Assembly: GCA_942493095.1 (NCBI GenBank)
Contig: OW818675.1
Location: 2,670,001 to 2,702,000, forward strand
Length of the DNA: 32,000 nt
Direction of reading: 5' to 3'
DNA from: Candidatus Electronema halotolerans
GTDB taxonomy: Bacteria; Desulfobacterota; Desulfobulbia; Desulfobulbales; Desulfobulbaceae
The notes beneath the pieces were generated by a model. That model ran no database searches, was not told where the DNA came from, and worked only from the letters and a program-made list of their open reading frames with translations. Of the stretch, positions 2,948 to 23,469 are shown one piece after another (position 1 is the first letter of the stretch; each line of letters opens with the position of its first letter). The position numbers and the translations under genes are program-made.

Positions 2948-4432
2948 TCACTTCGCTTCCGCCTTCAAATGCGGAAAGAGAATCACATCCCTGATCGAAG
3001 GCGAATCAGTCAGCAGCATGACCAGCCGGTCAATGCCAATGCCTTCACCCGCTGCTGAGGGCATTCCATACTCCAAGGCGCGGACATAGTCCTGATCCAG
3101 CTCAGGATGAATCTCCTCATCCTCGCCGCGCTCCGCAATCTGCTTGACGAAACGCTCATGCTGATCAATCGGATCATTCAGCTCAGAGAAGGCATTGGCA
3201 ATCTCCCTGCCTGTGATGAACAGCTCGAAGCGGTCGGTCACGCTGGGGTCATCCTCGTTGCGGCGGGCGAGCGGCGATATCTCCGCAGGGTAGGAGGTGA
3301 TGAAGGTCGGGTTGATCAGCTTCTCCTCCACCAGCAGCTCGAACAGGCCGGTGCGGGCCTTGCCCGGCCCGGAGTCTGGCTGCAAGTCCACCTTGTGCTG
3401 CTTGGCCAGCTCCATCACCGCCACATCATCGGCCACTGTAGCCGCATCCAAGCCTGCAATCTCGGTCAGAGCCTCGGTCATCGTCAGCCGCTGCCAGGGC
3501 GGGGCAAGGCTGATCGGCGTGCCTTGGTACGTGATCTGCATGGTGCCGTTCACCTGCTGACAGATGGAGGAAATCATCTCCTCAGTCAGGTCCATCAGGT
3601 CGTCATAAGTCGCATACGCCTGATAAAACTCCAGCATGGTGAACTCAGGATTGTGCCGCGTCGAAAGCCCCTCATTGCGGAAGTTGCGGTTGATCTCAAA
3701 GACCCGCTCAAAGCCGCCCACCACCAGCCGCTTGAGGTACAGCTCCGGGGCGATGCGCAGATACAGCTCCATGTCCAGCGCGTTGTGGTGGGTGATGAAG
3801 GGCTTGGCCGCCGCGCCGCCCGGAATCGGGTGGAGCATCGGCGTTTCCACCTCCAAGAAGCCGCGCTGGCTCAGAAACTCACGCAGCAGACGGATGATCT
3901 CCATGCGCTTGCGAAAGGTGCTGCGCACCTCCGGGTTGACGATCAGGTCAACGTAACGCTGGCGGTAGCGGGTCTCCACATCAGTCAGGCCGTGGAACTT
4001 CTCCGGCAGCGGGCGCAGGGACTTGCTGATCAGATGCAGCTTGGTTGCCTCAATGGACGGCTCGCCAGTCTTGGTCTTGAACGGCCTGCCCTCCACGCCG
4101 ACAATGTCGCCGGTATCCCATTTCTTAAAGTGACCGAACTGCTCCGCGCCGAGCACGTCCAAGCGAGCGTACACCTGGATGCGGGCCGACTCATCCTGCA
4201 AATGAAAGAAGGCGGCCTTGCCAAACTTGCGCATTGACATGACCCGGCCAGCGACTCGGCAGGACACGTCTTCCGGGGCATGCGCTTCCGGCTCCAAGGC
4301 CTCGGCCTGCGGCAGAATCTCGGCAATATGCTGCGGATGCTTGAAATCGTTGCTGAACAGCTTCACGCCGTCATCGGCGAGGCTCTGCGCCTTTTCCCGG
4401 CGCTGCTTGAGGAGGTTGTTGAGATTGTCCAT
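2948..4432 (-). CDS. lysS: lysine--tRNA ligase (class II LysRS)
   Basis: 494-aa ORF with class IIb hallmarks: [23 protein letters not shown] (motif 2 region) and [26 protein letters not shown] (motif 3). ATG 4432 directly abuts the ablB stop (TAAATG). Confidence 0.97.
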
Positions 4433-10790: not shown

Positions 10791-13700
10791 TTATTCTCCG
10801 AGCAGATGCAGCTCCACCCGCCGGTTTTTCGCCCGGCCTTCCCGGGTGCTGTTGTCCGCAACCGGATTGTCTTGGCCATAGCCTTTGCTGACCATCAGCT
10901 CTCTCCTGATGCCTTGGCTGATCAGGAAATTGCGCACTGCGTCAGCCCGGCGCTGCGAGATGACTTGGTTTCGCTCCGGGCTGCCCACGCTGTCTGTGTA
11001 GCCTGCAACTTCAAACTTCTGCTCCGCCGCTGCCTGCTTGATCAGGGCGGCGGCAGTGGTCAGGCTTTTCCGGGCCTCATCAGTCAGTTCCGCAGTGCCA
11101 AGGGCAAAATTGACCCCGGAAAGCACAATAGCCCTGCTTTCCTCGCAACCCATTTTATTGACCGTTGCCCCGTTCTGCGTTTCCGGGCAGAGATCCTCGC
11201 CGTCAGCCACGCCGTCGCCGTCCTTATCCGCTGCTGGCTCTTGGGCCGCCGGGGCAGCCTGTTCCGGGCTGTCAGTTTGCTCCTGCGATGCCACTGGCTG
11301 CTGCTTGAGCGCATTCAACTCCGCCTGCAACGATTCGATCTGCTTGCGGCTTTCTGTCAGCTCCGTCTTGAGCTGCTCCGAGTCATCCCCCTCCTGAACA
11401 GCGGCGGCTTCAGCACTTTGCGTCACTTGCTCCATTTTGGCCGCAGCCTGCTCAAGAGCGGCGGATTTTTCATCCAGCGCGGTTTTGAGCTGCTCTATTT
11501 CCTGGCGCAGATTTTCTTTAGCCTCAGTCAGCTCAGTCTCTTTTGCGCTCAGATTCTTCTTGAGACCGTCAATCTCCTCCTGCAAGGCCGCCGCATCCTT
11601 GCCTGCCTCCTGCTGGGCCTGCTGCTTCTTCTGCGCTGCAGCAAGCGCGGTCTCAGCTTCAGCTAATTTGCCTTGAACAGTCTTCAGCTCTTCCTGCAAG
11701 GCAGCGGTCTTGCCCTGCTTCTGCGCTTTTGCCAAGGCCGTCTCTTTTTCTGCCAGCGTTTTTTTCAGGCTGTCCAACTCCTGCTGCAAGGCCGTGTTTT
11801 GCCCTTGGTTCTTCTGAGCTTCAGCAAGTGCGGCTTCGCTTTTGGTCAGCTTGGCTTTAACCGTCTTCAGCTCCTCTGCCAAAGCAGCTATTTTTTCTTG
11901 GGCGGCTTTAAGCTGATCAGCTCCTGTCTGCATCTCCACAGACTGCGCTTCCAAAGCAGCTTCCTTTTCCGCCTGACTTTGCTTCAAGGCAGCAACTTCC
12001 TGCTGCAAGGCAGCGAGCTGCTCCTGGCTCTTCTGCGCTTGGGCAAGCTCGGCTTCCCTCTCGGCCAGCTTGTCCTTCACCGCCTGCAGGTCCGCAACTT
12101 GGACTTCCAAATCGGTATTTTTCTTTTTCGCCTCGGCAAGCTGTTCCTTTAAGGGCTGGAGATTGGCCACTTCCGCTTCCAAGGCAGCAACCTGCTCGGC
12201 AGCAGCCTGCACTTTTTCATGCACTGCCTCCAGATCAGCTAATTTTTTCTCCGCTTCCTGCTTCTGCTGCCGGGCCAGATCCAGCTCCTGCTCCATGTCA
12301 GCAGCCTTGCTTTCCAGTGCCGCAGCCTTCTCGTCCGCCGCCGTCAGTTTGCCTTTGATGTCCTCAGCCTGAGCATCAGCATCAGCAAGCTGGCCGCTCC
12401 GCTCTTCCAACTGCTGCGTTGTTGCTGCCAGCTCGTTATTAGCCGTCTCCAGCTCGCCGGTCAGCTTCTCCTGAGCGGCAGTCAGATCAGCAATTTTCTG
12501 AGTCAGCTCCGCAGCCTGCTGTTTTTTTGCCGCAATCTCGGTCTGCAATTTCTCGTTTTCCGCTCTGAGAACGGTGAGCACCTCATCCTTGCCGGTCAGG
12601 CTCTGCTCTAGACCACGCTCTTTTTCCTTTGCTGCGGCAAGACCTTCTTCGGCTGTCTGCAAGGCCGTCTTGGTTTCCGCAAGCTGCTTTTCCAGAGCTG
12701 CGGCAGCATCTGCTTTCTGTTGCAGCTCCTGCCGCAGCTGTTCGGCCTCTTTCTCCTGCACCTTTTTTTCCTGCATCAGTCCGGTCACTTGCGCAACCAA
12801 ATCCTGACCATAGGCCTTGGCCTCGTCAAGCTGCTCGCGGGCCGCCTCCAGATTGGCCTGCCTTTCGGCAATCTGCCCTTTCAGCTCGGCAATCCGCTGC
12901 TCTGAGGGCGCATATTCCTGCTCCTTTTTTTCGCCATAGCTGAACATGGCCTCAGCCTTCATCTGAGCGGCCTTGAGCGACTGCTCCAGCTCCTTGATTT
13001 TGACAGCAGATGCGACCAACAGACTTTTCTGGTTCTCCAGCTTGAGCTGCCGCTCATCAAGCAGGGACTGGAGCTTTTGCTGCTTGCCGCTGACTTCCTG
13101 CGCATGCTTCTCTGCCGCCGCCTTGGCGATTGCGCCCTGCTCCAGCACTTTTTCCAGCTCGGCGATTTTTGTCTTGGCCGCATCGGCCTGCGACTTGCTC
13201 TCCGCAGCCTGCTTCTTCTGCTCGTCAAGCTGGGCAGTCAACTTTTTAACTTCTCCGGCCAGCCGGTGCTGCTCCCCGGAAGTCTGCTTCAGTTTCTGCT
13301 GCAGATCAGCCAGCTCCGCCTGCCGCTGTTTCAGAGCATCCTGCGCATCTGCCCTGCCCTTCTCGGCTGCGGCTAATTTCTGCTTGAGATCAGCAAGTTG
13401 CTTGTCTTTCGCCGCTGCTGTCTGCTGCAAGGCACTGACCTGCTCGGTCAGCTTCTTGCCTGCCGCATCAGCCGCAGCCTGCTGCTGCTTGGCCTCAGCC
13501 AGCAGCTTCTCCTGCTCCGCAGCCTGCTTTTGCAGCTCGGCCAATTGCTTTTCTGCTGCGGCCAGCTTCTGCCCCTGCTCCTTGCCGTAGCTTGCCAAAG
13601 ACTCAGCCTTGAGTTCAGCCTTGCGCCGCGCTTCTTCAAGAGCAGCCTGCGTTTCCTTGTCAGCAGCAAGCTGCGCCGCTGTCTGCTCGACCTGGCGGTT

Positions 13701-16700
13701 CAGCTCAAAAATACGGCTCTCCGCCGCCTGCTGGGCCTGGCGCAGCTTGGCAATCTCCTCCTGCAAGGTCTGCTTCTTCTGATTCTGTTTACCCTTCCCC
13801 TCGGCAAGGCTGCTGGTCAGCTTGCTGATTTCCTTGGTGAGCTGCTGCTTTTCCAGCTCCAGCTTCTGCTGGACAGCCGCCAAGTCCTCCTGCCGCTGTT
13901 CCAGAGCGTCCTGCGCATCTGTTTTGTCCTTCTCGGCTGCGGCAAGCTGCTGCTTGAGATCAGCCAACTGCTTGTCTTTCGCCGCTGCTGTCTGCTGCAG
14001 CGCATTGATCTGTTCAGCCAGCTTCTCCTGCTCCGCAGCCTGCTTTTGCAGCTCGGCCAATTGCTTCTCTGCTGCGGCCAGCTTCTTTTCCTGCTCCTTG
14101 CCGTAGCTTGCCAAAGACTCAGCCTTGAGTTCAGCCTTGCGCCGCGCTTCTTCAAGAGCAGCCTGCGTTTCCTTGTCAGCAGCAAGCTGCGCCGCTGTCT
14201 GCTCGGCCTGGCGGTTCAGCTCAAAAATACGGCTCTCCGCCGCCTGCTGGGCCTGGCGCAGCTTGGCAATCTCCTCCTGCAAGGTCTGCTTCTTCTGATT
14301 CTGTTTACCCTTCCCCTCGGCAAGGCTGCTGGTCAGCTTGCTGATTTCCTCGGTGAGCTGCTGCTTTTCCAGCTCCAGCTTCTGCTGGACAGCCGCCAAG
14401 TCCTCCTGCCGCTGTTCCAGAGCGTCCTGCGCATCTGCCTTGTCCTTCTCCGCTGCGGCAAGCTGCTGCTTCAGATCAGCCAGCTGCTTGTCTTTCGCCG
14501 CTGCTGTCTGCCGCAGGCCATTGATCTGTTCAGCCAGCTTCTTGCCTACAGCCTGCTGCTGCCTAGCCTCAGCCAGCAGCTTCTCCTGCTCCGCAGCCTG
14601 CTTTTGCAGCTCGGCCAATTGCTTTTCCGCTGTGGCCAGCTTCTTTTCCTGCTCCTTGCCGTAGCTTGCCAAAGACTCAGCCTTGAGTTCAGCCTTGCGC
14701 CGCGCTTCTTCAAGAGCAGCCTGCGTGTCCTTGTCAGCAGCAAGCTGCGCCGCTGTCTGCTCGACCTGGCGGTTCAGCTCAAAAATACGGCTCTCCGCTG
14801 CCTGCTGGGCCTGGCGCAGCTTGGCAATTTCCTCCTGCAAGGTCTGCTTCTTCTGATTCTGTTTACCCTTCCCCTCGGCAAGGCTGCTGGTCAACTTGTT
14901 GATTTCCTCGGTGAGCTGCTGCTTTTCCAGCTCCAGCTTCTGCTGGACAGCCGCCAAGTCGTCCTGCCGCTGTTCCAGAGCGTCCTGCGCATCTGTTTTG
15001 TCCTTCTCCGCTGCGGCAAGCTGCTGCTTCAGATCAGCCAGCTGCTTGTCTTTCGCCGCTGCTGTCTGCTGCAGGCCATTGATCTGTTCAGCCAGCTTCT
15101 TGCCTACAGCCTGCTGCTGCCTAGCCTCAGCCAGCAGCTTCTCCTGCTCCGCAGCCTGCTTTTGCAGCTCGGCCAATTGCTTTTCCGCTGTGGCCAGCTT
15201 CTTTTCCTGCTCCTTGCCGTAGCTTGCCAAAGACTCAGCCTTGAGTTCAGCCTTGCGCCGCGCTTCTTCAAGAGCAGCCTGCGTGTCCTTGTCAGCAGCA
15301 AGCTGCGCCGCTGTCTGCTCGACCTGGCGGTTCAGCTCAAAAATACGGCTCTCCGCCGCCTGCTGGGCCTGGCGCAGCTTGGCAATTTTCTCCTGCAAGG
15401 TCTGCTTCTTCTGATTCTGTTTACCCTTCCCCTCGGCAAGGCTGCTGGTCAACTTGTTGATTTCCTCGGTGAGCTGCTGCTTTTCCAGCTCCAGCTTCTG
15501 CTGGACAGCCGCCAAGTCCTCCTGCCGCTGCTCCAGAGCGTCCTGCGCATCTGCCTTGTCCTTCTCCGCTGCGGCAAGCTGCTGCTTCAGATCAGCCAGC
15601 TGCTTGTCTTTCGCCGCTGCCACCTGCTGCAGCGCATTGATCTGTTCAGCCAGCTTCTTGCCTACAGCCTGCTGCTGCCTAGCCTCAGCCAGCAGCTTCT
15701 CCTGCTCCGCAGCCTGCTTTTGCAGCTCGGTCAATTGCTTTTCCGCTGTGGCCAGCTTCTTTTCCTGCTCCTTGCCGTAGCTTGCCAAAGACTCAGCCTT
15801 GAGTTCAGCCTTGCGCCGCGCTTCTTCAAGGGAAGCCTGCGTTTCCTTGTCAGCAGCAAGCTGCGCCGCTGTCTGCTCGGCCTGGCGGTTCAGCTCAAAA
15901 ATACGGCTCTCCGCCGCCTGCTGGGCCTGGCGCAGCTTGGCAATCTCCTCCTGCAAGGTCTGCTTCTTCTGATTCTGTTTACCCTTCCCCTCGGCAAGGC
16001 TGCTGGTCAGCTTGCTGATTTCCTCGGTGAGCTGCTGCTTTTCCAGCTCCAGCTTCTGCTGGACAGCCGCCAAGTCGTCCTGCCGCTGTTCCAGAGCGTC
16101 CTGCGCATCTGCCTTGTCCTTCTCCGCTGCGGCAAGCTGCTGCTTCAGATCAGCCAGCTGCTTGTCTTTCGCCGCTGCCACCTGCTGCAGGCCATTGATC
16201 TGTTCAGCCAGCTTGTCCTGCTCCGCTGCCTGCTTTTGCAGCTCGGCCAATTGCTTTTCCGCTGCGGCCAGCTTCTTTTCCTGCTCCTTGCCGTAGCTCA
16301 TCAGCGACTCAGCCTTGAGTTCAGCCTTGCGCCGCGCTTCTTCAAGGGAAGCCTGCGTTTCCTTGTCAGCAGCAAGCTGCGCCGCTGTCTGCCCGGCCTG
16401 GCGGTTCAAGGCGAAAATGCGGCTCTCCGCAGCCTGCTGGGCCTGCTGGAGCTGCGCAATCTTTTCCTGCAAGGACTGCTTGGTCTGATTTTGCTGATTC
16501 TTTTGTTGGGCAAGGCTGTCAGTCAGTTTGCTGATTTTTTGAGTAAGCTGCTGCTTCTCCTGCGCCAGCTGCTGCTGGACAGCCGCCAATTCTTCCTGCC
16601 ACTCCTCCAGAGCGGTCTGCGCATCTGTCTTGTCTTTCTCGGCAGCGGCAAGCTGCTGCTTGAGACCAGCAAGCTGCTTGTCCTTCTCCGCTGCCGCCTG

Positions 16701-18476
16701 CTGCAAGGCATTGATCTGCGCGGCAAGTTTTTTGCCAGCCGCTTCAGCCTCCGCCTGCTGCTGCCGGGCCGTCCGCAGCAGCTTCTCCTGCGCTTGCGCT
16801 TGCTGCTGATACTGGGCCTGCTGCTGTTCCAGGGCAGCCTGTGTATTTTCCTTGTCCTTCTGGACAGCAGCCAGCTGCTGCTTCAGTTCGGCTAGCTGTC
16901 TGCCTTTTTCCACCGCTGTCTGCTGCAAGGCGTTGATCTGCGCAACAAGTTTCTTATCCGCTGCTTCAGTCTGCTTTAGCTTCTGCTGATACTGAGCCTG
17001 CTGCTGTTCCAGGGCAGCCTGTGTATTTTCCTTGTCCTTCTGGACAGCAGCCAGCTGCTGCTTCAATTCAGCCAGCTGTCTGCCTTTTTCCACCGCTGTC
17101 TGCTGCAAGGCATTGATCTGCGCAACAAGTTTCTTATCCGCTGCTTCAGTCTGCTTTAGCTTCTGCTGATACTGAGCCTGCTGCTGTTCCAGTGCAGCCT
17201 GTGTATTTTCCTTGTCCTTCTGGACAGCAGCCAGCCGCTGCTTCAATTCAGCCAGCTGTCTGCCTTTTTCCACTGCTGTCTGCTGCAAGGCGTTGATCTG
17301 CGCAACAAGCTTCTTGCCTGCGGCCTCTGCTTGCGCCTGCTCCTCCTGCAACGCCGCATGCAGAGCTGCTTTTCCTTCCTGTTCTGCCGCTATCTTTCCT
17401 TTCAAATCAGACAACTGCTTATTTTTTCCCGCAACCGTCCGCTGGAGGGCGCTGACCTGTTCAGCTAGCTGCTTGCCAGCTGCTTCCGCCTGCGCCTGCT
17501 GCTGCCGGGTCAGGTGCAGTATTTTTTCCTGCTCCTCAGCCTGCTGCTGCAACTGGGCAAGCTGCTCCTGGGCAGCGGCCAGCTTCTCCTCCTGCTCCTT
17601 GCCATAGCGCATCAAAGCCTCAGACTTGAGTTCGGCCCGATGCAGCTCCTCCTCTACAGCTATCCGTTCCTTTGCCGCCGCAGAAAGTTGCGCCTCGGTC
17701 TGCTGCACTTGGTGCTTGAGTTCAAAGAGACGACCCGCTTCCGCCGTGCTGCTTTGCTGGCGTTCCTCCCGCAGTTTGGCGAGCTGCTCTTCCGCCGCCT
17801 GCACAGCCTGCTTCTGTTCAGCAGTCTTCTGTTCAAAATAAGTTATTTTCGCCTGCAAGTCAGCCGCTGCCGCTTGCTTCTGCTCCAGCTGCTGCCGGGC
17901 TTTCTCCAGCTCCGCATTCAAGCTGTTTTTCGCCTGATTGAGCCGCGCCGCCTCAGCCTGCGAACGGGCCAGATTCGCCTCACTGGCTTTCAGCTTGTCC
18001 AAGAGCTGACGGCTGGCCGCATTTTCACCCTGACTGAGGGCATCAATCTTGTCGTCCGCCTGCACCAGCTTCTTCTGCAAGGTCTTGATTTCGGAATCAT
18101 AATCAGCCTGCATCTGCTGCCATTCAGCCGCGGCCTCCTCCTGCCGGGTCTTCTGGTCGGCAATCTGGGTCTCCAGTTCACTGATTCTGCCACGCAATTG
18201 CAGCGACCACGCTTGTCTCGCCGTTGTCTGATCCTCAGTCAGCTCCTTGCGCAGCCGCCGCACCTCAGCCTTGGCCGCTTCCACCTCCTGCGCAGCTTGC
18301 TGCACTTTCCGCTTGTATTCTTCAGCCTGATTTTGCGGATGGGCGATCACTTCCTGCTTGCTGGCAGCAAGTGCAGCAGTGCCTTTCTTCAGACTGTCAT
18401 TATACGTTGCAAGTGCGATGTACGACAAGGCGACAGCAGCGGCGGCGAGAAGAGCTTTGCGCTTTGTGAATTGCAT
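10791..18476 (-). CDS. giant (2,561 aa) repetitive coiled-coil protein with N-terminal signal/anchor, TSP3-like Ca-binding motif and C-terminal OmpA/MotB peptidoglycan-binding domain
   Basis: Uninterrupted 7,686-nt ORF. ATG 18476 has GGGAG 9 nt upstream. N-terminus MQFTKRKALLAAAAVALSYIALATY. More than 2,300 residues are dominated by A/Q/E/K/L. Near the C-terminus: DKDGDGVADGEDLCPE, then GVNFALGTAELTDEARKSL...VAGYTDSVGSPERNQVISQRRADAVRNFL...NRRVELHL (OmpA_C signature). All long plus-strand ORFs across it are Leu/Ser/Cys-rich mirror artefacts. Confidence 0.93.
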   Translation of the reverse strand: MQFTKRKALLAAAAVALSYIALATYNDSLKKGTAALAASKQEVIAHPQNQAEEYKRKVQQAAQEVEAAKAEVRRLRKELTEDQTTARQAWSLQLRGRISELETQIADQKTRQEEAAAEWQQMQADYDSEIKTLQKKLVQADDKIDALSQGENAASRQLLDKLKASEANLARSQAEAARLNQAKNSLNAELEKARQQLEQKQAAAADLQAKITYFEQKTAEQKQAVQAAEEQLAKLREERQQSSTAEAGRLFELKHQVQQTEAQLSAAAKERIAVEEELHRAELKSEALMRYGKEQEEKLAAAQEQLAQLQQQAEEQEKILHLTRQQQAQAEAAGKQLAEQVSALQRTVAGKNKQLSDLKGKIAAEQEGKAALHAALQEEQAQAEAAGKKLVAQINALQQTAVEKGRQLAELKQRLAAVQKDKENTQAALEQQQAQYQQKLKQTEAADKKLVAQINALQQTAVEKGRQLAELKQQLAAVQKDKENTQAALEQQQAQYQQKLKQTEAADKKLVAQINALQQTAVEKGRQLAELKQQLAAVQKDKENTQAALEQQQAQYQQQAQAQEKLLRTARQQQAEAEAAGKKLAAQINALQQAAAEKDKQLAGLKQQLAAAEKDKTDAQTALEEWQEELAAVQQQLAQEKQQLTQKISKLTDSLAQQKNQQNQTKQSLQEKIAQLQQAQQAAESRIFALNRQAGQTAAQLAADKETQASLEEARRKAELKAESLMSYGKEQEKKLAAAEKQLAELQKQAAEQDKLAEQINGLQQVAAAKDKQLADLKQQLAAAEKDKADAQDALEQRQDDLAAVQQKLELEKQQLTEEISKLTSSLAEGKGKQNQKKQTLQEEIAKLRQAQQAAESRIFELNRQAEQTAAQLAADKETQASLEEARRKAELKAESLASYGKEQEKKLATAEKQLTELQKQAAEQEKLLAEARQQQAVGKKLAEQINALQQVAAAKDKQLADLKQQLAAAEKDKADAQDALEQRQEDLAAVQQKLELEKQQLTEEINKLTSSLAEGKGKQNQKKQTLQEKIAKLRQAQQAAESRIFELNRQVEQTAAQLAADKDTQAALEEARRKAELKAESLASYGKEQEKKLATAEKQLAELQKQAAEQEKLLAEARQQQAVGKKLAEQINGLQQTAAAKDKQLADLKQQLAAAEKDKTDAQDALEQRQDDLAAVQQKLELEKQQLTEEINKLTSSLAEGKGKQNQKKQTLQEEIAKLRQAQQAAESRIFELNRQVEQTAAQLAADKDTQAALEEARRKAELKAESLASYGKEQEKKLATAEKQLAELQKQAAEQEKLLAEARQQQAVGKKLAEQINGLRQTAAAKDKQLADLKQQLAAAEKDKADAQDALEQRQEDLAAVQQKLELEKQQLTEEISKLTSSLAEGKGKQNQKKQTLQEEIAKLRQAQQAAESRIFELNRQAEQTAAQLAADKETQAALEEARRKAELKAESLASYGKEQEKKLAAAEKQLAELQKQAAEQEKLAEQINALQQTAAAKDKQLADLKQQLAAAEKDKTDAQDALEQRQEDLAAVQQKLELEKQQLTKEISKLTSSLAEGKGKQNQKKQTLQEEIAKLRQAQQAAESRIFELNRQVEQTAAQLAADKETQAALEEARRKAELKAESLASYGKEQGQKLAAAEKQLAELQKQAAEQEKLLAEAKQQQAAADAAGKKLTEQVSALQQTAAAKDKQLADLKQKLAAAEKGRADAQDALKQRQAELADLQQKLKQTSGEQHRLAGEVKKLTAQLDEQKKQAAESKSQADAAKTKIAELEKVLEQGAIAKAAAEKHAQEVSGKQQKLQSLLDERQLKLENQKSLLVASAVKIKELEQSLKAAQMKAEAMFSYGEKKEQEYAPSEQRIAELKGQIAERQANLEAAREQLDEAKAYGQDLVAQVTGLMQEKKVQEKEAEQLRQELQQKADAAAALEKQLAETKTALQTAEEGLAAAKEKERGLEQSLTGKDEVLTVLRAENEKLQTEIAAKKQQAAELTQKIADLTAAQEKLTGELETANNELAATTQQLEERSGQLADADAQAEDIKGKLTAADEKAAALESKAADMEQELDLARQQKQEAEKKLADLEAVHEKVQAAAEQVAALEAEVANLQPLKEQLAEAKKKNTDLEVQVADLQAVKDKLAEREAELAQAQKSQEQLAALQQEVAALKQSQAEKEAALEAQSVEMQTGADQLKAAQEKIAALAEELKTVKAKLTKSEAALAEAQKNQGQNTALQQELDSLKKTLAEKETALAKAQKQGKTAALQEELKTVQGKLAEAETALAAAQKKQQAQQEAGKDAAALQEEIDGLKKNLSAKETELTEAKENLRQEIEQLKTALDEKSAALEQAAAKMEQVTQSAEAAAVQEGDDSEQLKTELTESRKQIESLQAELNALKQQPVASQEQTDSPEQAAPAAQEPAADKDGDGVADGEDLCPETQNGATVNKMGCEESRAIVLSGVNFALGTAELTDEARKSLTTAAALIKQAAAEQKFEVAGYTDSVGSPERNQVISQRRADAVRNFLISQGIRRELMVSKGYGQDNPVADNSTREGRAKNRRVELHLLGE
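13260..16790 (-). repeat. in-frame tandem repeat array, about 6.5 units of 558 nt (186 aa) or 516 nt (172 aa), inside the giant gene
   Basis: The string cttg(c/t)tgatttcctcggtgagctgctgcttttccagctccagcttctgctggacagccgccaagtc recurs at about 13822, 14338, 14896, 15454 and 16012, with a diverged copy at about 16528. Spacings are 516, 558, 558, 558, 516. Central units differ by only a few nt per 100 by eye. The 516-nt form lacks 42 nt, coding LAEARQQQAVGKKL (or an equivalent 14-aa register). Confidence 0.9.
16800..17320 (-). repeat. in-frame tandem repeat, about 2.9 x 180 nt (60 aa), inside the giant gene
   Basis: ctgctgatactg(g/a)gcctgctgctgttccag(g/t)gcagcctgtgtattttccttgtccttctggacagcagccag recurs at 16803, 16983 and 17163. 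The protein repeat is KKLVAQINALQQTAVEKGRQLAELKQQLAAVQKDKENTQAALEQQQAQYQQKLKQTEAAD. Confidence 0.9.
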
Positions 18477-20970: not shown

Positions 20971-21873
20971 TCACTTGCTCTTCTTCCGCTTCTGCGGAAC
21001 ATCCTTTTTGGCGCCGCTCTTTTTCCGCACCTGCGGCTCCTGCCGTTCAGCAGCCTCCGTCTCGCGCCACTGCTCCTCAGTCAGCGAGACCTCTGTGCCT
21101 TCCGGCGAGACTGCCAGCACTTTGCCCTGCATGGGCAGCACCCGCGTCACCCGATAGACCGTGCCGTCATGATTGAGCGACTGGCCGGGTTTGGGCATTT
21201 CCTTTTTTATCTCCCGGTAGCTCTCAAACTCATAGGTCAGGCAGCAGAGCAGGCGGTTGCAGACCCCGGAAATCTTGGCCGGATTGAGCGGCAGGTCTTG
21301 GGCCTTGGCCATCTTGATGGACACGGATTCAAAGTTGCGGAGAAAGGAGGCGCAGCACAGCTCCCTGCCGCAGGTGCCGAGGCCGCCAGTCATCTGGGTT
21401 TCGTGGCGCACGCCGATCTGCCGCATCTCCACTCTGGTGCGGAACTCCTGCACCAAGTCCTTGACTAACTCGCGGAAGTCAACCCGGTTTTCAGCAGTGA
21501 AGTAAAAGATGACCTTGGAGCCGTTGAAATAGCACTCCGCCCCCACCAAGTGCATGGGCAGGGCCAAGGCCTTGATCCGCTCCTTGCAGAAGGCGGAAGC
21601 GGCCCGCTCACGGGCAGGCAGTTGCGCGTACCGCTCCTGCTCATCGCTGTAGGCGCGGCGGCTGATCTCGCAGGCGCAGGCTTCGGCCTTGTCCGGGGCC
21701 ACTGTCCGGCAGACGATCACCGCAGGCTCATGTCTGTCCTCTTCCCGGAGCATCACGGTCTCGCCCGGCATGAGATCAGCAATAATGCTGCGGGCAAGGT
21801 GCTCCCGTCCCAGCGGACGGCGGCGGATTCGGCAGTATTGCACTCCCCTGTCTTCTGCTGCGCCTTCTGTCAT
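20971..21873 (-). CDS. PSP1 domain protein (YaaT/RicT-like)
   Basis: 300-aa ORF. PSP1 C-terminal domain string FYFTAENRVDFRELVKDLVQEFRTRVEMRQIGVRHETQMTGGLGTCGRELCCASFL...GVCNRLLCCLTYE. Lies directly downstream of holB, the conserved holB-yaaT pairing. Lys-rich tail. Confidence 0.85.
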   Translation of the reverse strand: MTEGAAEDRGVQYCRIRRRPLGREHLARSIIADLMPGETVMLREEDRHEPAVIVCRTVAPDKAEACACEISRRAYSDEQERYAQLPARERAASAFCKERIKALALPMHLVGAECYFNGSKVIFYFTAENRVDFRELVKDLVQEFRTRVEMRQIGVRHETQMTGGLGTCGRELCCASFLRNFESVSIKMAKAQDLPLNPAKISGVCNRLLCCLTYEFESYREIKKEMPKPGQSLNHDGTVYRVTRVLPMQGKVLAVSPEGTEVSLTEEQWRETEAAERQEPQVRKKSGAKKDVPQKRKKSK

Positions 21874-21913: not shown

Positions 21914-22897
21914 TCACTGCGTTTCCCGCCCGCAGAACAGGTCCAGGAGCAGCACCTCGCAAACCAAGGCGCGGCTGCAATTTCTCGCCAGATCGCTGCG
22001 GGCGGCCTCAACCGCACTCACCATAGCAGAAAGCTGCGGCAAATTCCAGCCTTCTCTTGCCGCAAGGACATGATCTGCGGACAGTGCTCTGTGGCAGAGG
22101 ATGCTGGTCATGGCTTCCTTGAAAAACAGGGCCAGCAAATCAAGAAAAAGATGCAGCTCATCCTTGAGTTCCGCCAGCCGCTGGGCCAGGTCAAGGGCCT
22201 GCTCCACAGCCTCGGCCTGGCTCATCTGTTCTTTCAGGGCGGCGAGGCATTCCTGATGCAGCTCCAAAACTTCGCTGCTGTGCAAGGCACCGGTGCGGCC
22301 CGGACAGCCGCCAGTGAGCTTGGCCATAGTCCGCACCTCGTCATGACTCAGTTGAGGATGCGTCTGCTGGATGACCTGCGCTGTCTGTTCCTCAGTCAGC
22401 GGGCCAAAGGGAATGACTTGGCAGCGGGAAATGATGGTGTCCAAGAGCGGCTCCGCGTCTGAGGCGACGAGCAGGAGCAGGTTGTCCGGCGGCGGCTCCT
22501 CCAGCAGCTTGAGCAGGCTGTTGGCTGCCTCCCGGCCCATTGTCTGGGTCTCCTCAATGATCACCACCCGCATTCCCCGCTCAAAGGGCGGAAAATGGAG
22601 AGCCTTTTTCAGCTCCCGGACTTGATTGATCTTGATGCCCGCGCCTTCAGGCTGGAGCTGGAGGAAATCAGGATGACTGCCTGCGGCAACCTTGCGGCAG
22701 CCGGGACAGCAGCCGCAGGGCGGGCCGTCGCCTTTGTCGTGACAGAGCAGCTTGGCAGCCAAGGCGCGGGCCGTGCTGCGTTTGCCCACCCCTTCCGGGC
22801 CGGTGAACAGGTAGCCGTGCGCCAGCCTGCCGCCAGCAAGGGCGCGGCAAAGCAGGTTCAAGGCCTTGGGCTGGCCAATGATGTGCGAAAAGGGCAT
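21914..22897 (-). CDS. holB: DNA polymerase III subunit delta' (clamp-loader AAA+)
   Basis: HGYLFTGPEGVGKRS (P-loop), Zn module CGCCPGCRKV, VVIIEE, SRC motif IISRCQVIPF. The track start 22924 is TTG; ATG 22897 (MPFSHIIGQ...) fits the usual HolB N-terminus. Confidence 0.88.
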   Translation of the reverse strand: MPFSHIIGQPKALNLLCRALAGGRLAHGYLFTGPEGVGKRSTARALAAKLLCHDKGDGPPCGCCPGCRKVAAGSHPDFLQLQPEGAGIKINQVRELKKALHFPPFERGMRVVIIEETQTMGREAANSLLKLLEEPPPDNLLLLVASDAEPLLDTIISRCQVIPFGPLTEEQTAQVIQQTHPQLSHDEVRTMAKLTGGCPGRTGALHSSEVLELHQECLAALKEQMSQAEAVEQALDLAQRLAELKDELHLFLDLLALFFKEAMTSILCHRALSADHVLAAREGWNLPQLSAMVSAVEAARSDLARNCSRALVCEVLLLDLFCGRETQ

Positions 22898-23068
22898 CTG
22901 GAACGCAATCGTTATCTTTCTCAAACCTGTTCAGGCAAAGAGGGAGCAAAGCCGGAAGGTCGGTTTGCGTTGATCTGAAACTGTATGCGGCAGCGTGCAG
23001 GAATGCAATGATTTTCTTGGGCAGGGCTGAAGCATTTCGGAAACCCAGCTTGCAGCCATCCCTGCACC

Positions 23069-23252
23069 ATACTGGTATGCAGCCGCACTGCACAGTGGTG
23101 ATCACGCGCTCCCGACACCAGTGAGGAGCCACGCCGCACACCAGTGATGTCCGTGCCCCGACACTGGTGTGCAGCCGTTATCGATACTGGTGTCGAGCCT
23201 GCCTGCACACTGGTGATCACGCGCTCTCGACACCAGTGTCGAGCTGAAAGAA
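23069..23252. repeat. array of eight exactly phased 23-bp repeats, each with a 10-bp near-palindromic core AYACYRGTGW (iteron/operator-like; adjacent inverted cores can form 3 hairpins)
   Basis: Read directly. The 23-mers start at 23069, 23092, 23115, 23138, 23161, 23184, 23207 and 23230. Cores: ATACTGGTAT, ACAGTGGTGA, ACACCAGTGA, ACACCAGTGA, ACACTGGTGT, ATACTGGTGT, ACACTGGTGA, ACACCAGTGT. The 13-nt GC-rich spacers partly pair up: R2/R7 tcacgcgctc(c/t)cg, R1/R5 gcagccg..., R6/R8 cgagc... Confidence 0.8.
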
Positions 23253-23392
23253 AACCCCATGCTGCCGCATAGGTCATTTTCAGGCGCAAGGATAATCAGA
23301 CGAGACGGCGCAGAGCCTGTCAAGGAGTCTTCGGACGGCTTTTTTGCATGAGCAAAAAAGTGGCGGCAGGGTGATGGCTGAAGAAATGCGCT

Positions 23393-23469
23393 TGGTGCGC
23401 CCGGAGGGATTTGAACCCCCAACCCTCGGATTCGAAGTCCGATGCTCTATCCAGTTGAGCTACGGGCGC
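23393..23469 (-). tRNA. tRNA-Arg (anticodon TCG), CCA encoded
   Basis: Reverse complement GCGCCCGTAGCTCAACTGGATAGAGCATCGGACTTCGAATCCGAGGGTTGGGGGTTCAAATCCCTCCGGGCGCACCA folds as a cloverleaf. 7-bp acceptor stem GCGCCCG/CGGGCGC; anticodon stem TCGGA/TCCGA; loop CTTCGAA. Confidence 0.93.

Follow-up and report, generated by a model that had tools for sequence, protein, structure and literature searches.

The tandem repeat array at positions 23069-23252 of a 32-kb window of the Candidatus (Ca.) Electronema halotolerans genome, located between a tRNA-Arg gene and holB, is putatively a binding platform for a protein that combines an HU-like DNA-binding domain with an immunoglobulin-like (Ig) domain (hereafter HU-Ig), a reading to which we assign a probability of about 0.6. 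The window is the whole stretch of 32,000 nucleotides that was analyzed (contig OW818675.1, positions 2,670,001 to 2,702,000), and coordinates given without a locus label refer to it. From sequence comparison, we read the window copy as an orphan, or satellite, of a cis-acting element belonging to a family of HU-like proteins that is expanded in cable bacteria, because no HU-Ig gene lies in the window and the canonical promoter is missing on the expected side.

The array is real and non-random. It comprises eight direct 23-bp units in perfect register, with zero phase slips. A pattern search for AYACYRGTGW on the plus strand found six exact cores (at 23115, 23138, 23161, 23184, 23207 and 23230), and the first two cores, each with one mismatch to this motif, stand in exact register with them. 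A sequence-only reading of this DNA had reported eight such cores spaced every 23 bp; the spacing stands as described, but only six of the cores are exact. Counted on both strands, the motif has 8 matches against 0.25 expected, with a maximum of 2 in 100 shuffles, and the pattern search found no further copies in the rest of the 32-kb window. The lag-23 autocorrelation is the sole periodic non-coding signal in the window. Contigs of three independent sequencing runs (L271-L273) carry the array base for base, which rules out an assembly artefact. Its units, read directly from the sequence, are the following.

23069-23252, plus strand: array of eight direct units, each with a 10-bp dyad core (consensus ACACY-RGTGT) and a 13-bp GC-rich spacer of the form sCAGCC…C
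23069-23078: core of unit 1, ATACTGGTAT, degenerate, one mismatch
23092-23101: core of unit 2, ACAGTGGTGA, degenerate, one mismatch; its spacer, TCACGCGCTCCCG, is of the 'B' type
23115-23124: core of unit 3, ACACCAGTGA, exact
23138-23147: core of unit 4, ACACCAGTGA, exact; its spacer, TGTCCGTGCCCCG, matches L185, L046 and L053
23161-23170: core of unit 5, ACACTGGTGT, exact and a perfect dyad except at the center; its spacer, GCAGCCGTTATCG, matches L251, L253 and L053
23184-23193: core of unit 6, ATACTGGTGT, exact
23207-23216: core of unit 7, ACACTGGTGA, exact; its spacer, TCACGCGCTCTCG, duplicates that of unit 2
23230-23239: core of unit 8, ACACCAGTGT, exact, the final unit

Positions 23069-23129 and 23184-23244 form a 61-nt internal duplication (84% identical), which contains two near-identical spacers, TCACGCGCTC[C/T]CG, correctly noticed earlier as two near-identical hairpin loops. 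The logo of the unit displays a conserved C three bases 5' of the core and a spacer that begins GCAGCC-like, and the units are therefore polar direct repeats with an embedded dyad. Their polarity on the plus strand is that of the canonical, gene-linked arrays described below.

The core is a 10-bp dyad that is asymmetric at its central dinucleotide alone; for instance, ACACTGGTGT and ACACCAGTGT are mutual reverse complements. The order of central dinucleotides given by the sequence-only reading (TG TG CA CA TG TG TG CA) is correct. Across the homologous arrays, the Y-R centers TG, CA, CG and TA are all present and an R-Y center is absent, so the half-site reads ACACY. Since self-complementary cores allow any two of them to pair, hairpins and the switch between TG and CA arise automatically. 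Neighboring cores can indeed form hairpins with 15-nt loops, as had been proposed (23207-23215 pairs with 23231-23239 at 9/9 positions), and the array folds better than shuffled sequences on both strands (z = -2.8 for the minus strand and z = -4.35 for the plus strand), as palindromes necessarily do. The further proposal that the TG/CA switch is a compensatory change preserving these pairs does not survive comparison. All four Y-R centers occur, complementary neighbors number 28 of 89 against 29.1 expected (12 arrays, permutation test), and between the close relatives L251 and L253 the centers of homologous units differ (TA/CA, TG/CA, CA/TA) with the neighbor unchanged. A search of Rfam 15 over 23069-23252 gave zero overlapping matches even at E <= 10, the tRNA alone scoring. 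Core palindromy explains both the switch and the hairpins, with no sign of selection for pairing, and a freely flipping Y-R center fits two identical half-sites on duplex DNA.

Arrays of the window type, which have a conserved core, drifting spacers and 7-14 units, were found among the matches listed in Desulfobulbaceae/cable bacteria (L046 twice, L053, L087, L091, L185, L244 and L251) and in Cerasicoccus of the Verrucomicrobiota (L019, L043, L058 and L066). The genome scan that yielded both groups used the two-core pattern ACACYRGTG-N14-ACACYRGTG, which is loose and returned mostly single chance matches; a three-core metagenome scan returned mostly ordinary perfect 23-bp tandem repeats, with cable-type arrays only in L185, L244 and L251. 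L185 and L046 contain units colinear with units 2-5 of the window (23092-23183), at about 87% identity, and single window spacers recur at other loci, in L251, L253 and L053. Comparison of the arrays shows that the core is strongly conserved and the spacers drift. A lag-23 scan of 283 kb of cable-bacterial DNA found arrays beside HU-Ig genes and a few satellites, including one extra orphan (L261:415-552), and among lags 19-27 in the same DNA nothing except lag 23 appeared, bar one coding repeat. About 91 kb of holB-anchored loci of relatives contained zero further arrays, as did the flanks of HU-Ig genes; the 32-kb window contained one.

The gene linked to these arrays encodes a protein of 358 amino acids (aa). 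In L046 (array and promoter of both copies), L185, L251 and L253, a type-1 array, that is, one with CAC-YR-GTG cores, leads to a conserved sigma-70-like promoter (cTGTTGACAgaagccgcagcccg..TTACGCT) and then to the 358-aa gene. Likewise, in Electrothrix (L261) a type-1 array precedes a TTGACA…TTACGCT promoter and the 358-aa gene. The AlphaFold2 model of the protein (predicted local distance difference test score 84.8) has by far its best PDB match in 4FMR (E = 3e-12, fold search), the prototype structure for Ig-fused HU-HIG proteins, and its N-terminal domain superposes on HU/IHF structures with template-modeling scores of 0.66-0.82; phmmer with the cable protein against PDB sequences gave no match, and the fold search alone found one. 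The protein consists of an N-terminal HU-DNA_bdg domain, a DUF4469 Ig-like domain and an extra C-terminal beta domain of about 130 aa. Cerasicoccus (L043) has a gene with clear matches to HU-DNA_bdg (57 bits) and DUF4469 (38 bits) and, 90 nt away from it, an array of identical core and period; phmmer connects the Cerasicoccus and cable-bacterial proteins in both directions. Cable bacteria have expanded the family greatly: one search gave 905 matches, a full HMMER scan gave 791 representative clusters, and Ca. Electronema aureum has at least four paralogues.

We read eight upstream regions of family genes, all of which share a TTGACA…TTAcGCTG promoter. The arrays that accompany this promoter differ by paralogue, as follows.

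Type-1 gene, including the Electrothrix orthologue (L251, L253, L261): CAC-YR-GTG arrays upstream of the -35 box
P0213 / P0211 orthologues, type 2 (L260, L263): arrays of 23-bp period built on a longer dyad, CAC-N4-GTG, upstream of the -35 box
P0232 (L256): 2-3 units of GCATAC/GTATGC upstream of the -35 box
P0150 / P0145 (L254, L262): array absent

By sequence comparison, the type of array core co-varies with the paralogue, and each type keeps its own register with the promoter. The type-1 dyad centers lie exactly 40, 63, 86, 109, 132 … bp upstream of the -35 box at 5/5 loci from three lineages, and the type-2 centers lie 25, 48, 71, 94, 117 and 140 bp from it at 2/2 loci. Such a fixed register with the -35 box of the array's own gene suggests autoregulation.

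The association extends beyond cable bacteria. Searching plasmid and phage records by tblastn with the Cerasicoccus and Fulvitalea proteins led to seven further loci, chosen by protein only: Fulvitalea pFA1, Treponema saccharophilum pTS2, four Parabacteroides distasonis paralogues and a gut phage. In these loci and L043, each of about 5.5 kb, lag 23 was the top autocorrelation among lags 12-35 in 8/8 cases, beside the gene; under a uniform null for the top lag, the probability of this outcome is (1/24)^8, about 1e-11. The repeat unit and its palindromic core are particular to each locus, for instance TTAGGGATATCCTAA, CATGATAGCTTTCATG or ATAC-N4-GTAT. At 5/8 loci (Parabacteroides and Treponema), 4-30 nt separate the stop codon from the array; it follows a terminator at 2/8 (Cerasicoccus and Fulvitalea) and lies about 600 nt away in the phage. 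At the level of sequence, these loci establish a cross-phylum linkage between 23-bp arrays and the HU-DNA_bdg/DUF4469 family, represented in cable bacteria, Bacteroidota, Spirochaetota, Verrucomicrobiota and phage. The T. saccharophilum locus (L265, 2489-5141) contains, in order, the HU-DUF4469 gene, the 23-bp array, a small open reading frame (ORF) and a leucine-rich-repeat protein gene, an order that matches the TDE_2259/TDE_2258 (lrrA) neighborhood of T. denticola. There, TDE_2259 and TDE_2258 (lrrA) both fall in a trtA mutant, in a report that merely noted the architecture of TDE_2259 (PMC12724145).

Arrays without an adjacent HU-Ig gene include the window copy, those of L087, L091 and L244, that of L053, and L261:415-552. 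The arrays in L087 (7560-7720), L091 (1230-1390) and L244 (278-415) are of type 1, and the start codon of an orthologous GAF/sigma-54 activator gene follows 10-25 nt downstream of each. The L053 array is upstream of a gene for a provisional hydrogenase-maturation protease, a reading based only on the N-terminal sequence. In the Electrothrix orphan (L261, 415-552), a type-2-like dyad, CAC-N4-GTG, alternates with CTCC-N4-GGAG near an RHH_1 gene. Arrays lie within 1-2 kb of dnaA in L046 and L091. L046 also carries a 305-bp segment duplicated at 471-775 and 3046-3350, 99% identical and 2.6 kb apart, which holds a type-1 array, the promoter, the 5' leader and the first HU-Ig codons. The second copy leads only to a 22-codon ORF upstream of a pyruvate-kinase-like gene, and judged from its content the duplication amounts to a relocated array-plus-promoter cassette.

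Arrays with related cores were also observed in other settings. Four phage contigs carry 23-bp tandem arrays with a CACYRGTG core (L125, 3536-3660; L120, 3470-3585; L123, 1401-1470; L126, 6519-6610). The L125 array (CCACCGGTGTCCC) lies inside a lambda-O-like helix-turn-helix (HTH) gene and is followed by a second repeat set, TAGAACCGTCAA; the other three lie just upstream of HTH replication-type ORFs. An HU-Ig gene was not seen on these four phage contigs. Near-perfect 23-bp tandem arrays of 20-33 units with ACACCRGTG-type cores occur in L062 (5886-6345), L028 (4238-4720), L115 (6315-6842), L143, L180, L213 and others. The first three come from a Tannerellaceae metagenome-assembled genome, where the arrays stand beside SusC-like and extracytoplasmic function (ECF) sigma factor genes, and L143, L180 and L213 are unclassified metagenome contigs. 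We did not count the perfect tandem repeats of termite-gut Tannerellaceae and similar contigs as evidence because the scan pattern itself selects them. A family hidden Markov model (HMM) found no HU-Ig gene at the Tannerellaceae loci, a weak negative given that the model is dominated by cable-bacterial sequences.

Around the window array, all context genes are on the minus strand. The features bearing on the interpretation are listed in the direction of transcription.

23393-23469, minus strand: tRNA-Arg (anticodon TCG), the upstream neighbor, 141 nt from the array
23256-23273, minus strand: terminator-like hairpin, CCTATGCGGCAGCATGGG then GTTTTCTTTC, between tRNA-Arg and the array
22980-23008, minus strand: putative, weak holB promoter candidate, TTGCAT-17 nt-TACAGT, 7/12 to consensus, missed by a consensus scan
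21914-22897, minus strand: holB (DNA polymerase III delta'), the downstream gene
20971-21873, minus strand: PSP1 gene, after holB

The hairpin at 23256-23273 would stop the tRNA-Arg transcript before the array. The distance to the tRNA gene agrees with the earlier estimate of about 140 nt; the distance to the holB start, put at about 145-330 nt, needs correction, since the likely start is the ATG at 22897 and not the TTG at 22924, which places the array 172-355 nt upstream. The window holB is 72-76% identical to those of named Ca. Electronema species and 89-92% identical to metagenome contigs, and on this basis the window derives from a freshwater cable bacterium (Desulfobulbaceae). Neither an array nor a tRNA gene was found upstream of holB in four relatives (L127, 89%; L128, 82%; L130, 75%; L132, 72% identical protein), and upstream synteny is likewise broken at these loci. 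Similarity between the window and L127, the closest relative, ends about 135 nt upstream of the holB ATG; the candidate holB promoter sits within this conserved 135-nt block, and the array lies outside it. A conserved holB regulator was accordingly rejected, the array being absent from the four holB loci. The absence of the array from the relatives' holB spacers is an outcome that the sequence-only reading had taken to count against its proposal; with the surrounding synteny also lost, however, it counts against a conserved holB regulator and not against function itself. The public holB call in L127 (2580-3950) has 456 aa, 129 aa beyond the conserved protein, and runs through the non-coding upstream region; it exemplifies the over-extended ORFs that hide such spacers.

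Additional features of the window were observed. A perfect 9-bp inverted repeat, CTTTTTTGC-atga-GCAAAAAAG, occupies 23339-23360 on the minus strand, 33 nt past the 3' end of tRNA-Arg; after it comes a TTGACA hexamer (23322-23317) with no acceptable -10 box. Other neighbors in the window include genes for an NAD-dependent epimerase and a multihaem cytochrome. A giant ORF of 2561 aa (10791-18476, minus strand) has a strong strand composition skew and internal repeats, namely a 180-bp unit present in 2.9 copies at 16798-17315 (96% matches) and an 18-bp motif every 558 bp (14531, 15089 and 15647). Its product is probably a long, repetitive, coiled-coil protein.

We propose the following mechanism. 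Each 23-bp unit contains a two-fold symmetric site composed of two ACACY half-sites, and we infer that each site, as double-stranded DNA, accommodates one type-1 homodimer. The proposed binder is the type-1 paralogue, the orthologue of Ca. Electronema aureum CDV28_1103. With a step of 23 bp, or about 2.2 helical turns, eight dimers would build either a wrapped complex or a regular nucleoprotein filament that rotates slowly. An array standing in fixed -35 register before its own gene would serve autoregulation. In the window, a partial copy has ended up between the terminator of tRNA-Arg and the promoter region of holB, where it most likely recruits the same protein; its local effect could be to modulate or insulate holB-PSP1 transcription, or it may simply provide an extra binding or titration site.

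Several observations weigh against this interpretation. It has been argued from 4FMR that the Ig domain occludes the HU clasp, and a classical DNA-binding or sequence-specific role was considered unlikely (Burroughs et al. 2017, PMC5499826). The 358-aa cable protein matches HU-DNA_bdg (PF14848) and DUF4469 (PF14734) only below the Pfam thresholds (19 bits). The canonical promoter is missing from the window copy, whose orientation towards holB is the reverse of the canonical arrangement and whose nearest dyad center is 65 bp upstream of a merely weak candidate holB -35 box, where the canonical series gives 63. Consistent with the earlier remark that no cognate binder is evident nearby, neither tblastn nor the family HMM applied to six-frame ORFs found an HU-DUF4469 homologue in the 32-kb window. 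Judging from the four array-free relatives, the array is not needed for holB expression. Finally, the Parabacteroides and Treponema arrays that abut a stop codon are probably co-transcribed with the gene, which leaves room for an RNA-level role.

Among the alternatives, a neutral dispersed repeat, duplicated selfishly or passively and with no role at this site, connected to HU-Ig genes only through the origin of the repeat, seems unlikely to us. It would resemble the repetitive extragenic palindromic (REP) sequences and bacterial interspersed mosaic elements (BIME) of γ-proteobacteria, or miniature inverted-repeat transposable elements. Like REP/BIME, the arrays are imperfect short palindromes clustered between genes, use a few linker types repeatedly and vary between close relatives. 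Homologous arrays do occupy non-orthologous positions, the region upstream of L127 holB is array-free, with similarity ending about 135 nt before the ATG, and duplication is evident in the 305-bp segment of L046 and within the window array. However, REP elements occur in hundreds of copies with strictly alternating orientation and no fixed period and are tied to RAYT genes, whereas the arrays are few (none more in the roughly 91 kb of holB-anchored loci or in the HU-Ig flanks), have an exact 23-bp period and one polarity, and keep a fixed promoter register; no transposase or RAYT gene was seen adjacent. Conservation of the core while the spacers drift, and retention of the array before the sigma-54 activator gene in three genomes (L087, L091 and L244), are also difficult to reconcile with neutrality. 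The REP-type option of the sequence-only reading is thereby weakened, given that arrays in 283 kb of cable-bacterial DNA stand only beside HU-Ig genes, plus the few satellites. We hold it slightly less probable still that the array binds another regulator, either the GAF/sigma-54 activator or another dimeric transcription factor. The arrays just upstream of the activator gene in those three genomes would fit this idea, and dyads of GCAC…GTGC flavor presumably recall, if loosely, the sites of enhancer-binding proteins. Nevertheless, the linkage to HU-DUF4469 genes holds in five phylum-level groups without an adjacent activator, the core type changes with the HU-Ig paralogue, and the canonical promoter beside the arrays is sigma-70-like, not sigma-54-like.

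A structured RNA, with the array transcribed either within a long 5' leader of holB or separately and acting through its tandem hairpins, is improbable. HU-fold proteins can bind RNA, both strands of the array outfold shuffles, and the Bacteroidota and Spirochaetota arrays, a few nucleotides past the stop codon, are probably in a 3' untranslated region; an RNA role may hold in those lineages. In the window, the array follows the terminator-like hairpin on the transcribed strand and comes before the conserved holB promoter candidate, while the cable, Cerasicoccus and Fulvitalea arrays are upstream of a -35 box or after a terminator. With no Rfam match, no excess of complementary neighbors and uncompensated center flips, the earlier case for RNA, built on hairpins and compensation, reduces to a by-product of the palindromic core. 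We consider it very improbable that the array is an iteron replication origin or a partition centromere from a mobile element, whether integrated or ancestral, even though it is iteron-like in form and located beside a tRNA gene, the phage arrays lie in or beside HTH replication-protein-like genes, and two cable-bacterial arrays are 1-2 kb from dnaA. Scanning the window ORFs revealed no rep, par or integrase genes in the neighborhood, and no partition NTPase or centromere-binding protein gene; as for the tRNA-Arg gene being an island attachment site, neither an integrase nor a duplication of the tRNA end was seen. Core housekeeping genes flank the array, the relatives lack it, and homologues of it are found at several unrelated places on a chromosome. 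No AT-rich unwinding region is evident, the region being 57% G+C (22900-23400 was read; DnaA boxes were not specifically searched). A CRISPR array was rejected because only 10 bp of each unit are conserved, the 13-bp spacers resemble one another, and cas domains are absent in the neighbors. Protein binding, one of the options in the sequence-only reading, is thus retained with HU-DNA_bdg plus DUF4469, presumably encoded elsewhere in the genome, as the candidate family, and its initiator and ParR/ParG variants are not supported.

Comparison with known systems places the proposed HU-Ig platform among familiar kinds of element. The iterons of lambdoid origins, located inside the O gene, resemble the proposed platform in having several phased dyad sites of about 20 bp, each taking a dimer, within a wrapped complex, the O-some. 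In contrast to the O-some, the window has no replication gene or adjacent AT-rich region, the arrays occur in multiple copies per chromosome, and the candidate binder has an HU fold and not an O-type winged helix. Centromere arrays such as R1 parC/ParR, the pSM19035 omega heptads, F sopC/SopB and tubC/TubR are tandem short repeats beside the gene of their binder, which covers the repeats as a regular filament and controls its own, adjacent promoter; the orientation of their sites can be mixed. The arrays described here differ from them in period, dyad core and protein fold, are not linked to a partition ATPase or GTPase, and are chromosomal and positioned beside many paralogues per genome.

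The closest relationship is with the Ig-fused subclade of the HU-HIG clade (PF14848 plus PF14734; PDB 4FMR, BVU_2165), whose architecture and fold the array-linked gene shares; the cable-bacterial proteins depart from the HU-HIG prototype through their additional C-terminal domain. Lineage-specific expansion and rapid divergence of paralogues characterize the clade and are found likewise in cable bacteria. A comparative study of HU-HIG proteins reports no conserved linkages (Burroughs et al. 2017, PMC5499826), and a cognate nucleic-acid site is undescribed in the literature searched, whereas here paralogue-specific 23-bp arrays adjoin the tested genes, P0150/P0145 being without one. No description of the array was found in that literature either: a literal search for the core returned primers and eukaryotic sequences only, and searches for 23-bp repeats and FopS small RNAs gave nothing relevant. 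A phased array of binding sites is a familiar kind of element; its protein partner, the universal 23-bp period and the paralogue-specific addressing appear to be undescribed.

We lean, if only by a little, towards a broader interpretation in which HU-HIG proteins (HU-DNA_bdg plus DUF4469 Ig) and 23-bp palindromic arrays form a widespread and previously unrecognized two-part system. Each paralogue would stand beside its own 'address' array, located upstream of the promoter in fixed register in cable bacteria and just after the stop codon in Bacteroidota, Spirochaetota and Verrucomicrobiota, and orphan arrays would mark further chromosomal targets. The lag-23 periodicity offers a simple genomic signature for annotating elements that are now unannotated and are sometimes swallowed by over-extended gene calls. 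HU-HIG/DUF4469 proteins are among the largest unexplained expansions of a DNA-binding fold in Bacteroidota, with up to about 20 copies per genome, and the arrays give each protein of this family, so prominent in cable bacteria as well, a candidate target. The promoter register provides a regulatory hypothesis, and the orphan arrays point to a candidate regulon comprising holB-PSP1, the sigma-54 activator gene and the provisional hydrogenase-maturation protease gene. If the interpretation is true, these lineage-specific expansions would represent families of chromatin or regulatory proteins that bind arrays in a sequence-specific way, at odds with the published inference of no specific DNA binding.

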